Positions 18,321-23,470 of a stretch of DNA of 64,000 nucleotides are shown piece by piece. Both the position numbers and the translations under genes were made by a program. The first letter of the stretch is position 1, and every line of letters begins with the position of its first letter. Origin of the DNA: Gemmatimonadota bacterium (GTDB lineage: Bacteria; Latescibacterota; UBA2968; UBA8231); NCBI GenBank assembly GCA_038153405.1, contig JAYOYH010000003.1, forward strand, positions 107,258 to 171,257, in the 5' to 3' direction. The notes under the pieces were generated by a model. The model saw nothing but the letters and a program-made list of their open reading frames with translations. It ran no database searches and was not told the DNA's origin.

Positions 18321-19148
18321 TCACCATTCGTCCTCCGGCATATTGTCCCATCCCCGCTCGTCATCCTCTATGTCCACCACTTCGCACCGGCCCTCGGCCC
18401 TCTGACAGAGAGAAGCGTAGCTGCACCGCTTGCACACTTGCCCGTCCTCCGTCATCGGGAACGCAGACTCTTCGCGCGGCAGCTGGCCAATTTCTGCCAA
18501 CGTTCCCTCGATCTTGGCCCTCGCCTCGTCGTGCTCCCTCGCCGAATACGAAATCGGTTCCAGCGCCGCAGGCGCGTTGGCGTGCCAGTATACCAGCACG
18601 ACGTCCTCCGGCCGCACGGCGCGTCCCCCATTGAGCATTGCCCCCGCTTCCACCGCCACAAAGCGATACACCCACGTCTGCCAGCTGGCAGCCAGATCGG
18701 TCGCGTCTGGCACGCGCTGACCCGTCTTCCAATCGCCGATGTATATTCGTCCATCCGCCGCTGCGACGATGCGATCGTATTGGGCGACCAATCGCCGAGA
18801 TAGCAGCGGAACGGAGAGCTGCACTTCTGAATACACCACACCTGCAGGAAACTCGGCCGGGGTCTGAAGCCAATTTTTCCACCAGCGCACCAGCATTTCG
18901 TCTCCGCATTCCAACGCCCACGCATCGACACCGACGCCGATGCTATCCTGGTGCATCCAGTGGTGGAACTGCGCTCCGCGCTCGACGGCGCGCTCCCAAA
19001 CAGCCATCTCTTCGCTTAGCGGCGCCGGCCATTCGACGCGGCACACATAGCGCAGCCAAAAGCGTCTAGGGCACTGGGCATAGGCCGATAAACTGCTCTG
19101 GCTAAAGCGAATAGTGGCGCCGTTGCTCACTGTAACGCCCTCCCCCAA
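18321..19148 (-). CDS. RecB-family PD-(D/E)XK nuclease with Cas4/AddB-type Fe-S cysteine cluster (probably the C-terminal domain of the upstream helicase, separated by a frameshift)
   Basis: SLSAYAQCPRRFWLRY N-terminal motif. IGDWKTG (D-x-K) active-site motif. C-terminal C-x2-C-x5-C (CKRCSYASLC). TTG start in the track. Its frame stays open about 80 nt upstream into the helicase 3' end. Confidence 0.7.
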   Translation of the reverse strand: MGEGVTVSNGATIRFSQSSLSAYAQCPRRFWLRYVCRVEWPAPLSEEMAVWERAVERGAQFHHWMHQDSIGVGVDAWALECGDEMLVRWWKNWLQTPAEFPAGVVYSEVQLSVPLLSRRLVAQYDRIVAAADGRIYIGDWKTGQRVPDATDLAASWQTWVYRFVAVEAGAMLNGGRAVRPEDVVLVYWHANAPAALEPISYSAREHDEARAKIEGTLAEIGQLPREESAFPMTEDGQVCKRCSYASLCQRAEGRCEVVDIEDDERGWDNMPEDEW

Positions 19149-21331
19149 AACGCACTGAGCTTTTGACAGACGACCGCCTGCCGCGTCGGGCGCATGCGCG
19201 TAGCCAACGGAATTTCGCGACTCCAGCTAATGGCCAAGTAGCGGCGCGCCCGCGTGATGGCCACGTAGAACAGACGCAGGCGCTCGGCGATCACTTCCAC
19301 GTGTGCCATATCCGTAGCCGATAGACGCCCGGCCTGCCATTCGCCAATCAGGCCGAGCAGTTCGGCGCGCGCCTCTTCGCCGGGATCGCCGCCTAAAAAT
19401 TCGTATTCGCCGCGAAAGTGGTCTTCCAGATCGTAGGGAAACCAATCCCGGTCGGCGCCGACGATATAGACCAAATCCCACTCTAGGCCCTTGGCCTTGT
19501 GCATGGTTGTCAGCGAGATGCGACCGGGACGCGGGGCGAAGAGGTCGTCGTCATCCAGCGCCGCGGCGCGTCCGCGCGCGGCTAGCCCCAATTCGCGAGC
19601 GAGCTCTGGCAGGCGCCACTCCGGATTGGCATCGGTGCGGGCGCGCAAGAATGTGGCCAGCTTTTGCGCCCTCGCCATATCGGCAGCGCGAAATAGGTCC
19701 TGGGCAATGCTCATTACTAACTGGTCGACCGGCAGCGCGGCAGCGCGCAGCCAGCGGCGCATATAACGGCAAAAGACGGCGATGGCGCGCAGGTCGAGCG
19801 GATCTATTTCGCCAACCGGAGGCAAGGCATCGCGCGGATCGCTACCCTCCCGCGGAAAGAGCAGCGCCTCCGGTCGGTAGCAACTGCGCAGCAGCGTGGC
19901 CACCTCCTCCTCGCTGCCGGGCCCGCGCTCGTCGGGCCAGTAGGTGCGCAGCGCGCGATAGGCTCGCTCCATATGCCCGCGCTTAAGCGGTTCGGCCAAA
20001 TAGGACAGAACGTGCGATAGCACGTCGCCGACCTGTCGCGCCGAGTGGGCACTTTGCAGGACTTCGTCAAAATCTACCCCCACCTCGCGCAGCACGTCGG
20101 CCATGGCGTAACCCAAGCGGTTGGTGGGAACGAGGATGGCCAATGTAAGGTGGGGACTGCGCCGGCAAAAAGCACCGGCCCGACGCGCCACGTCGCGCAT
20201 CTCGTCGCCGCGATTGTTGTATTCGCGAAAAGCGATATCGCTCTCGTTATCAAGCGGGTTTTGCTGTGGATCTTCCCCATCCGTTGGGCGAATGTGCTGT
20301 GAACGGAATGCCCGCTCGCGCACCTCATCAAGCGCGTGTTCGCAGCAGGTCCAATCGACCAAATAATTGGCCAGTCGGATGATCTTAGGCGCACAGCGTC
20401 CCGAAATCGACATCTCCAGCGTCTGGACGTCTTCGCGCGCCAAAAATCGGCGCAAATAGCGCGGGTCAGCCGCGGTAAATGTGCTCATTATCGCTTGGTT
20501 GGGATCGCCGACGCGGATCCAGTTTCCCTCGTCCTGCCCCAACAGGGCCAGTAGGGCTTCCTGCAGCGGCACGCTGTCCTGCGCCTCGTCCTCCAACACG
20601 ATGGGCCAGCGCCTTGCCAAACGCGCGCGCAAATCGGCGTGATCTTCCAGCAAATCGACGGCACATCGCACCAAATCGGTGAAGTCGAGTCCGCCCATTG
20701 TGTCCACTTGTTGCTGATATAATTGGTATAGCTCCGCCCCAATGCGCAAAAAGAGGTTCAGCTCGTCGCCGCCCCCCGAAGCGATTCGGGCCAATAGATC
20801 GTCCGGCGACAGACGGCGGTTTTTGGCCGCGGTGATAACCGTCCATCCCACCGTCCGCGCAATAGAGCGCCATTCGCGCTCCCAGCGCTCGTCGTAATAA
20901 TCGCCCGGGGCGAGCCCACCCCACGTGCGCTCGTTGCGCCCGTTCCAAATGCGCACGGCCTTGTCGAGCAGATCCGAGCTCGCGCGGTCGTCCAATACGC
21001 TGAACTCGCTGGCGACACCGGCCAGCCCCGCATTGGCCTGCACGATGCCGTAGGAGAGGCTATGCAGCGTGCGCACGTCGTAGCCGACCTGCACGTGTCC
21101 CATCCGCTCTAGCGCCTGGCGAATGCGCGTGCGCACATTGTCGACGGCCGCCGTCTGGTAGGTGACGATCAGCACTTGCCCTGCCGCCGTCTGCCGCTGT
21201 TCGATCAAACGCGTTGCCAGGGCGACAATGGTCGCCGTCTTCCCGCTGCCCGGCACCGCTGAAACGCCCATCAAACCGCGTTCGTATTCGAGTAGTTGGC
21301 GCTGACCTTCGCGCGGCTCAAATGCGTTCAT
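19127..21331 (-). CDS. UvrD/AddA-type superfamily-1 DNA helicase
   Basis: 734 aa. Motif I AVPGSGKT, II LEDEAQD, III GDPNQAI, V MHKAKGLEWD, VI VAITRARRYL. ATGA overlap with the upstream ORF. Confidence 0.85.
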   Translation of the reverse strand: MNAFEPREGQRQLLEYERGLMGVSAVPGSGKTATIVALATRLIEQRQTAAGQVLIVTYQTAAVDNVRTRIRQALERMGHVQVGYDVRTLHSLSYGIVQANAGLAGVASEFSVLDDRASSDLLDKAVRIWNGRNERTWGGLAPGDYYDERWEREWRSIARTVGWTVITAAKNRRLSPDDLLARIASGGGDELNLFLRIGAELYQLYQQQVDTMGGLDFTDLVRCAVDLLEDHADLRARLARRWPIVLEDEAQDSVPLQEALLALLGQDEGNWIRVGDPNQAIMSTFTAADPRYLRRFLAREDVQTLEMSISGRCAPKIIRLANYLVDWTCCEHALDEVRERAFRSQHIRPTDGEDPQQNPLDNESDIAFREYNNRGDEMRDVARRAGAFCRRSPHLTLAILVPTNRLGYAMADVLREVGVDFDEVLQSAHSARQVGDVLSHVLSYLAEPLKRGHMERAYRALRTYWPDERGPGSEEEVATLLRSCYRPEALLFPREGSDPRDALPPVGEIDPLDLRAIAVFCRYMRRWLRAAALPVDQLVMSIAQDLFRAADMARAQKLATFLRARTDANPEWRLPELARELGLAARGRAAALDDDDLFAPRPGRISLTTMHKAKGLEWDLVYIVGADRDWFPYDLEDHFRGEYEFLGGDPGEEARAELLGLIGEWQAGRLSATDMAHVEVIAERLRLFYVAITRARRYLAISWSREIPLATRMRPTRQAVVCQKLSAFWGRALQ

Positions 21332-23400
21332 CGCTCGCCCTGCAGCACCTGTTGAACGGCCATCAGCAGCGGACTATCCTGCGCTTCACCCCGCCCCTCG
21401 CGCTCACTGGAACACAGGTAGATTCCATCGCGGCAGCGCAGGGCCAGGCCGCGCACGAGTCGGTGCAGACTTCGATTGCGCAGCGAAAAGTCAACCGCGT
21501 CAGTCCAGCGCTCTTGTCGATCCCAGCGCCGGGTCAGTACGTGGTGGTTGGTCAGCGGTTGGTGCAGCGCATCCCACCAAGCCAGCGAACCAACGTCGAG
21601 CCAGAAATGGTAGCGGGCAACGTGGCCGCTGAGCAAGTAGGTATACACCGGCGCGACCAGCGCAATGGAATCCGGAGCCGTAGCCACATCGGCGTCGGTC
21701 AAATGCTGGGCGGCAACTACCCCCGACATGACCATTTCTGCATAGCGCAGCCCGACCTCGGCGGCGGCAAGTCCCAGCGCGGGGGCCACGCGGCGAAAGG
21801 CCGAGGCCGAGGCGATGAGTTTGCTGTAGACTGCAGCGCCGTCAGGCTCGATATGCGGCCCGGCCAGCACTTCGCCAAAGAGCCGACGAAGAAAATGGTC
21901 GAAGGGCGCCACGGCCCCCGTTCGGTAGGTCTCTAACCAGGTTTGTAGCGCGCCGTAGCGCGCCAGCGCAGCGGAACCCAAGCGTTCGACCTGCACGCCC
22001 TCTACTCCGTGCAGTGGACTCAGCGCACCCGCCGATTCGTCGTAAAACCACTGGACCAACAGTGCGGCCCGCAGCGGATCCAACGGCGCGAGGGCCAGCG
22101 TCAGGGCCTCGCACACATCAAAGGCCGTAGGCGAGGGGGACCATTGGGGATGGGCTAGGCCCGCCAGCGTCAAACAGGAACGCACGATGGGCTCTTCGCG
22201 CAGCGACTCGTAGCGTCGCACGATGGCAAAGGGGATATCGGCACCGACAAAAGCCTCGGCCAGCAAGAAGCGCAGCACGCCGTCAGCATGGGGTGCCACG
22301 ACGGCGATATCGCCGGGGGCCACACCCTTCGCAACTAAATCGACCACCCGCTGGACCACGACTTCGATCATCTGCGTGCGATAGGGCATGCGGAGCAGAT
22401 CGACGACGGCCCGGCGACTGCGCCCCGCAGAAAAGCCGGCCGGCCCCTGTCCGAGTTGCTCGCCGATGCGCCCCGCAAAATGCACTAGATCGGGCGAGGC
22501 GCATTCCTCCTCGCGCGCGGCAATGCGCTCTCGGCACTGGGCGGCCAATTCGGCACATCCGGCGGCATCGGCACCGAGGAACGAGCGGAACCCGCCGCGA
22601 TCGTCGCCTGCGAGCAGGGCCGATTCGCATCGAGGCAGCAAGCGCGCAATTAAATCGTGGGCAATCGGCACCATCTCGTCTACCGAATCGACGATGAGAT
22701 GGCGATAGCGCTCGGTGAAATAGCGCCAGAACGCCTCGCGCGAAACGAGGTGACTGGTAAAGAGTTCAAATACCAATGAGGCGTCGAGCAGGCCGTGCTG
22801 CAGGCAGTGCCCTCGGAACAGTTCGATGCAGTGCTGCACCTGCTCGTAGTAGCGCAGTCGCCCGTCTTCGCCAACCCAGGCCTCGCGCAGACGCGGCCCT
22901 ACCTCCCCCAGCGGAAAGCCGCTGACAGCGGCTTTATTCAGGTCGTCCAAGAGCTGCGAGAGCACCCGCTGAGGCCGCATGGTCAGCCCCTCGAAATAGC
23001 CCTGGGCAAGGAGCGGCTGTACGAGAGTAGCGAGCGCGTACTGCGCCGACTCGTAATTGAGAAAGACGGGCGCTTTTTCCGGCGCAGCAAAGCCCGCATC
23101 GGCGGCGACCAATGGCCAGAAGAGGCGAATGAGCCGCATGGCCAAGCCGTAATACGTCTGCAGTTCGACTTCGCTGTTGGGCCCCCATTCGAGCTGCCCC
23201 ATCTGTTCGCGGAATAGGCGAACCGTGGCGCGGTCGGGGTGCAATACCAACAGCGAGTAGCCCGAAACGCCCGACTCGAGCAAGAAGCGCAGGCGCTCTA
23301 ACTGGACCTGGCGCTGGCCGGCCACCAGCGGCCCGCCCAGAAAACAGGTGTGATTCCCCGCTATAGGCCCGCGAATTGCCTGGGCAAATTGGGGTACCAT
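21328..23400 (-). CDS. AddB/RecC-like inactivated helicase-fold protein (no nuclease domain)
   Basis: UvrD-like layout, but Walker A is replaced by GGPLVAGQRQV and DExx by DSVDEM. ATG at 23400 with GAGGTG RBS. The track's GTG at 23445 is a possible alternative start. Confidence 0.5.
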   Translation of the reverse strand: MVPQFAQAIRGPIAGNHTCFLGGPLVAGQRQVQLERLRFLLESGVSGYSLLVLHPDRATVRLFREQMGQLEWGPNSEVELQTYYGLAMRLIRLFWPLVAADAGFAAPEKAPVFLNYESAQYALATLVQPLLAQGYFEGLTMRPQRVLSQLLDDLNKAAVSGFPLGEVGPRLREAWVGEDGRLRYYEQVQHCIELFRGHCLQHGLLDASLVFELFTSHLVSREAFWRYFTERYRHLIVDSVDEMVPIAHDLIARLLPRCESALLAGDDRGGFRSFLGADAAGCAELAAQCRERIAAREEECASPDLVHFAGRIGEQLGQGPAGFSAGRSRRAVVDLLRMPYRTQMIEVVVQRVVDLVAKGVAPGDIAVVAPHADGVLRFLLAEAFVGADIPFAIVRRYESLREEPIVRSCLTLAGLAHPQWSPSPTAFDVCEALTLALAPLDPLRAALLVQWFYDESAGALSPLHGVEGVQVERLGSAALARYGALQTWLETYRTGAVAPFDHFLRRLFGEVLAGPHIEPDGAAVYSKLIASASAFRRVAPALGLAAAEVGLRYAEMVMSGVVAAQHLTDADVATAPDSIALVAPVYTYLLSGHVARYHFWLDVGSLAWWDALHQPLTNHHVLTRRWDRQERWTDAVDFSLRNRSLHRLVRGLALRCRDGIYLCSSEREGRGEAQDSPLLMAVQQVLQGER

Positions 23401-23470
23401 AAGCACCTCAAAATAAAATGGGACGGGCAAACACCCCCATCCCACTCAAATTAAAACGCATTAGAAACAG

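Follow-up and report, generated by a model that had tools for sequence, protein, structure and literature searches.

A three-gene operon of Latescibacterota and Chloroflexota encoding a pseudo-helicase, a UvrD-type helicase and a stand-alone nuclease, with a predicted role in processing DNA ends

On the minus strand of the window (the whole stretch of 64,000 nucleotides that was analysed), three coupled ORFs follow one another in the order ORF3, ORF2, ORF1. ORF3 (21328..23400) encodes a 690-amino-acid motor-like (pseudo-helicase) SF1A subunit without a nuclease domain. ORF2 (19127..21331) encodes a 734-amino-acid UvrD-type SF1A helicase, a predicted 3'-5' motor that has neither a nuclease domain nor the Tudor domain of PcrA/UvrD. 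ORF1 (18321..19130) encodes a 269-amino-acid stand-alone PD-(D/E)XK nuclease with a predicted Fe-S cysteine set. An earlier note on this DNA had reported the same three ORFs and the same distribution of domains (inactive motor without nuclease, active UvrD-type motor, Fe-S-type nuclease of the RecB family), and had remarked that the nuclease gene comes after the active helicase gene and not after the inactive one; all of this agrees with our analysis, in which ORF1 lies 3' of ORF2. The genes are currently labelled 'hypothetical protein', 'ATP-dependent helicase' and 'PD-(D/E)XK nuclease family protein'.

Both junctions on the minus strand are standard coupling signals: the stop codon of ORF3 and the start codon of ORF2 overlap in ATGA (21328..21331; translational coupling), and the stop of ORF2 and the start of ORF1 overlap in GTGA (19127..19130). 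ORF1 likely starts at GTG 19130 rather than at TTG 19148, because the former makes the GTGA overlap and has GGAGG about 10 nt upstream. ORF3 begins with an ATG preceded by GAGGTG, which gives 690 amino acids; the GTG at 23445, where the ORF tool places it, is unlikely to be the true start, because relatives are of about 690 amino acids. A terminator-like hairpin with a 12-bp stem and a T-run, a consensus match only (23416..23447, minus strand), sits between a PTS_EIIA_2 gene and the ribosome-binding site of ORF3, and may be the terminator of the upstream gene or an attenuator.

ORF3 has a single Pfam match, to PF00580, which is sub-threshold (16.2 bits against a cut-off of 23); no curated NCBIfam family matches it and all its UvrD matches fall below threshold. 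In the alignment, its GGPLVAGQRQV takes the place of the UvrD Walker A motif and its DSVDEM that of DEFQDT, so that the window protein has no usable Walker A and no DE in motif II. Neither Walker motif is intact; intact ones were what the earlier note had named in advance as speaking against its view of ORF3. That note's description of degenerate ATPase motifs thus holds for the window protein, in which neither Walker A nor Walker B is intact, but as regards Walker A not for the family as a whole: GxxGxGK[TS] is retained in most members, and its loss is confined to the clade of the window protein, where Walker A reads GPLVAGQRQ and motif II DSVDEM. In every family member examined, on the other hand, Walker B lacks its glutamate, motif II its DE and motif III its Q. 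The ancestral protein probably bound nucleotide but did not act as a motor, as is the case for AddB and AdnA; AddB retains just Walker A in many species, and the motif does not power unwinding (PMC3064778). The clade-specific loss of Walker A is, in effect, a natural experiment on the vestigial nucleotide site of AddB and AdnA.

The AlphaFold model of ORF3 (pLDDT 90) shows all four domains of an SF1A fold; the chain stops after domain 2A and includes no nuclease domain. Its nearest solved structures are Rep and the motor-like domain of AdnA. Although the fold is SF1A, the protein does not have the features that define the UvrD/Rep/PcrA family (PF00580 and PF13361 with intact motifs I-VI). The claim that it lacks a C-terminal nuclease was borne out by the Pfam search, by the model and by the lengths of relatives. 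A decaying pseudogene is ruled out by a dN/dS of 0.10, by 60-87% identity to relatives and by the confidence of the model.

ORF2, by contrast, has the features that ORF3 does not: PF00580 and PF13361 are above threshold (UvrD-helicase, 1.4e-40, 140 bits; UvrD_C, 7e-20, 72 bits) and the motifs are intact. Seventy relatives conserve motifs I, Ia, II (DEAQD), III (GDPNQ), V and VI, and the protein ends about 35 residues past motif VI. ORF2 is thus a complete UvrD-type helicase, as had been proposed, in that both domains and all motor motifs are present; its activity is predicted. The family profile matches UvrD (4e-43) ahead of AdnB (4e-29) and AddA (1e-26), and the sequence is nearer to UvrD/PcrA/Rep than to AdnB/AddA/RecB. 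From these comparisons, ORF2 is best classed as a member of the UvrD/Rep/PcrA family and not as an orthologue of the uvrD, rep or pcrA enzymes, because it scores far under the cut-offs of the NCBIfam equivalogs for all three. The genome of one relative encodes a canonical PcrA/UvrD with a Tudor domain elsewhere, and ORF2 is therefore an extra paralogue. Its dN/dS is 0.06.

ORF1 matches PDDEXK_1 (PF12705) over model positions 1-247 of 247 (4.9e-28; 99.1 bits against 22), and the C-terminus of Cas4 (PF01930) over residues 207-249 only (26.7 bits against 22.7). C20, D119, D133-W-K135, Y155, C233 and C236 are invariant in relatives, and Q151 and C242 are retained in at least 90% of sequences. The cysteines follow the pattern C-x(n)-C-x2-C-x5-C, a four-residue set predicted to hold an Fe-S cluster. 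Together, the two Pfam matches and the conserved cysteines confirm a nuclease of the RecB family with a Cas4/AddB-type cysteine cluster, as suggested earlier. The best structural match of ORF1 is the Fe-S nuclease domain of AdnA, and its family profile matches the nucleases of AdnB and AdnA as well as ACE1. The C-terminal tail is disordered and acidic, and ends in W.

The ORF3 family is found in at least 578 species genomes, always with a length of about 650-750 amino acids. Among the 65 informative loci, that is, those with enough downstream sequence, an ORF2-type helicase lies downstream of ORF3 in 62 (adjacent in 48) and an ORF1-type nuclease lies downstream as well in 45, with the tight three-gene form in 30; recJ comes next in 23 of 60. 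A survey of gene order that started from the nuclease gave the same result. The helicase pair also occurs without an adjacent nuclease (17 of 62 loci). The arrangement is far beyond chance, since dozens of independent genomes have these genes in the same order. The operon is present in hundreds of Latescibacterota and Chloroflexota genomes, and also in MAGs labelled Gemmatimonadota and on one Rhodothermota plasmid, so the suggestion that the system might be lineage-specific did not survive. Complete Latescibacterota chromosomes with the operon include OZ247580.1, OZ242361.1, OX638377.1, OY730476.1 and OZ241867.1. A search of the literature for a three- or four-gene system turned up only a remark on two-gene uvrD/cas4-like operons (PMC5704561), and the three-gene operon has apparently not been described so far.

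Because domains seem at first to be missing and the frames of ORF2 and ORF1 overlap, one might suspect a canonical addAB or adnAB that has decayed or been frameshifted in this genome only, with its nuclease domains lost or split. This is barely credible, given that the same lengths and gene order are found across hundreds of genomes, that dN/dS values of 0.06-0.19 for the operon genes indicate purifying selection, and that the overlaps are coupling signals. Moreover, no fused nuclease was seen among the best 150 of 660 clusters of ORF3 relatives, and none of the best 120 ORF2 relatives has one (PF12705). The earlier note had asked whether the three-ORF layout recurs in relatives or whether ordinary AddB and AddA occupy the locus there: the layout recurs and no ordinary AddB was seen at the locus, pointing to a conserved design and not to a decayed addAB. 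A frameshifted helicase-nuclease fusion is likewise ruled out, by the nuclease-free best 120 ORF2 relatives, by the GTGA junction and by the ORF1 relatives listed, which are mostly of 260-310 amino acids, have no helicase domain and thus stand alone.

Around the operon lie housekeeping and envelope genes, GroEL, IspG and POR among them. Synteny with PTS_EIIA_2, TMEM260 and YfhO is retained in relatives, recJ, ruvX and yceG also occur as neighbours, and the GC content of the operon is that of its surroundings. Among 72,556 plasmids, one (Salinibacter ruber pSR56) carries a copy, in which the whole four-gene cassette including recJ travels as a unit and which encodes the proteins WP_013060222 to WP_013060225; neither the phage collection nor IMG/VR yielded a copy. 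A mobile-element origin is ruled out by these counts. No direct-repeat (CRISPR-type) arrays were found in the window, which rules out a CRISPR association of the Cas4-like ORF1, and no cas genes among the neighbours and larger ORFs examined. Indeed, ORF1 is not a CRISPR-associated Cas4, as TIGR00372 gives 23 bits against 65 and covers the C-terminal cysteine motif only.

These data bear on a role in defence against phages or plasmids, in which the UvrD-like pair would bring a Cas4-family nuclease to foreign DNA ends in the manner of UvrD-Cas4 fusions or Gabija. ORF1 does belong to the Cas4/PDDEXK_1 superfamily, ORF2 matches the GajB models of PADLOC, and the pSR56 copy, whose GC content is above that of its flanks, adjoins a recombinase gene as well as toxin-antitoxin and XRE genes, which encode a SocA antitoxin and an XRE regulator. 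Hudaiberdiev et al. 2017 predicted that UvrD-Cas4 fusions, which are linked to RM or Dcm systems, are defence components (PMC5704561). However, the PADLOC matches are generic ones (UvrD, by the GajB model, and Cas4), the three ORFs have no match to GajA, and the neighbours have no OLD/ATPase-nuclease domain or other partner. The neighbours examined, in the window and in relatives alike, include no defence genes; the defence-island context raised by the earlier note was not seen, and such an island is rejected for the neighbourhood covered. With the conserved housekeeping synteny, the wide distribution in these phyla, recJ, ruvX and yceG nearby and the near-absence from mobile elements, the genomic context favours repair over defence as the predicted function, and we consider a defence role quite unlikely.

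We propose that the operon encodes a heterotrimeric helicase-nuclease for DNA ends, a split, single-nuclease relative of AdnAB/AddAB, a reading based on homology to which we give a probability of roughly 0.55. By this homology, ORF2 would be the sole ATP-driven 3'-5' motor, tracking along the 3' strand, and ORF3 a catalytically dead SF1A paralogue that moves along this strand as well, next to the motor or in its wake. ORF3 would serve as a scaffold and a channel for ssDNA, like the motor-like domain of AdnA or the helicase-like domain of AddB, and would still bind nucleotide in most relatives. ORF1 would dock at the fork as a separate subunit, in place of the Fe-S nuclease domain of AdnA/AddB, and cut the displaced 5' strand. 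As the complex would have no further nuclease to attack the 3' strand, a 3' tail would be left for loading of RecA with no need for a Chi-type switch. RecJ, encoded directly downstream in many genomes, would extend the degradation of the 5' strand.

The same proteins might instead act in repair or replication other than the resection of double-strand ends. In a RecFOR/RecJ-type pathway, for example, they could process gaps, flaps, or replication forks that have stalled or reversed: the UvrD-like motor would remove bound proteins or unwind DNA that carries nicks, and ORF1 would trim 5' flaps like Dna2. The nearness of ORF2 to UvrD, PcrA and Rep fits such a role, and the linkage to recJ recalls resection by a helicase with RecJ; a paper on the RecFOR pathway and ESDSA in Deinococcus, judged by term counts, treats UvrD and RecJ extensively (PMC2806897). 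However, end-resection machines (AddAB, AdnAB) are marked by just this combination of a dead SF1A subunit, a live one and an Fe-S nuclease of RecB type, and the closest structural counterpart of the nuclease comes from AdnA. We therefore regard a fork or gap role as rather unlikely. No sequence feature separates end-specific from fork- or gap-specific action.

Bacterial double-strand-break resection has three paradigms, RecBCD, AddAB and AdnAB, and in all of them the nucleases are fused to SF1 subunits; Chi regulates RecBCD and AddAB. A heterotrimeric end-processing complex with its Fe-S nuclease apart from both SF1 subunits, and without a nuclease for the 3' strand, would show that such machines are assembled in a modular way. 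It would also offer a natural minimal system in which to study the parts played by the dead motor and by the Fe-S domain, and would fill a gap in the annotation of end resection in Chloroflexota/Anaerolineae and Latescibacterota, which are large and little-studied phyla. It is possible, as a tentative extension, that pseudo-helicase, UvrD-type motor and free Fe-S nuclease make up a fourth architectural class that has no 3' nuclease or Chi switch, recruits RecJ (and perhaps other proteins of the SSB interactome) through the SSB-like acidic tail of ORF1, and is the main substitute for RecBCD/AddAB in Anaerolineae-type Chloroflexota and Latescibacterota.

As the earlier note had judged, the arrangement is unlike that of AddAB, AdnAB and RecBCD, the operon having the fused subunits of none of them. 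More distant systems share parts of its logic. RecQ or UvrD with RecJ (the RecF pathway), and Dna2 with Sgs1/BLM, likewise combine a helicase with degradation specific to the 5' strand that leaves a 3' tail, but they have no dedicated pseudo-helicase subunit and no coupled operon. Closer in gene content are the unfused uvrD and cas4-like operons of Hudaiberdiev et al. 2017, which link the gene of a Cas4-like nuclease (PF12705) to that of a UvrD-like SF1 helicase in two-gene form, mostly in Clostridiales; these lie in non-defence contexts and a repair role was proposed for them (PMC5704561). Compared by description, they differ in that the passages describing them mention neither a third, inactivated SF1A subunit nor a linkage to recJ.

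RecBCD resembles the operon in being an end-processing machine of three subunits with only one nuclease, and in that one of its subunits, RecC, is SF1-like but inactivated. However, both RecB and RecD are active motors, with opposite polarities, and the nuclease of RecBCD, which has no Fe-S cluster, is fused to RecB, whereas the operon has a separate nuclease, one predicted active motor and no RecD-like gene; the recB model reaches 99.6 bits where the cut-off is 696, and recD gives an E of 0.094. AddAB likewise pairs, in one operon, an active SF1A motor (AddA) with an inactivated helicase-like subunit (AddB), has an Fe-S nuclease of RecB type and, in addBA, places the gene for the inactive subunit first, as ORF3 is here. 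AddA has a second nuclease, for the 3' strand, which is regulated by Chi. Unlike in AddAB, where AddB is fused to the Fe-S nuclease and AddA to the second one, both fusions are missing: neither ORF3 nor its listed relatives, all of which stop after domain 2A, combine a helicase-like N-terminus with a C-terminal Fe-S nuclease, and ORF2 is an SF1A helicase that has no C-terminal nuclease of the RecB family. Accordingly, the addB model TIGR02786 matches only ORF1 (E 0.053; 11.6 bits against a cut-off of 486), and the addA models give 56-72 bits against cut-offs of 707-860.

In AdnAB, the AdnA subunit has a motor-like domain that binds nucleotide and an Fe-S nuclease, which is placed at the Y-junction and cleaves the 5' strand (PMC8789073). 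Like AdnAB, with its driving motor (AdnB) and its nucleotide-binding, non-driving motor-like subunit (AdnA), the operon pairs two SF1A paralogues; its PD-(D/E)XK nuclease, with a predicted Fe-S cluster, would act on the 5' strand at the fork as that of AdnA does. In contrast, each AdnAB subunit has a fused C-terminal nuclease, two in all, whereas the one nuclease of the operon is a separate protein encoded after the active helicase and not after the motor-like subunit, and the helicase parts of ORF3 and ORF2 are only weakly similar to AdnA and AdnB. The case for kinship with AdnAB is made chiefly by the nuclease and the overall logic, ORF3 being a generic SF1A fold.

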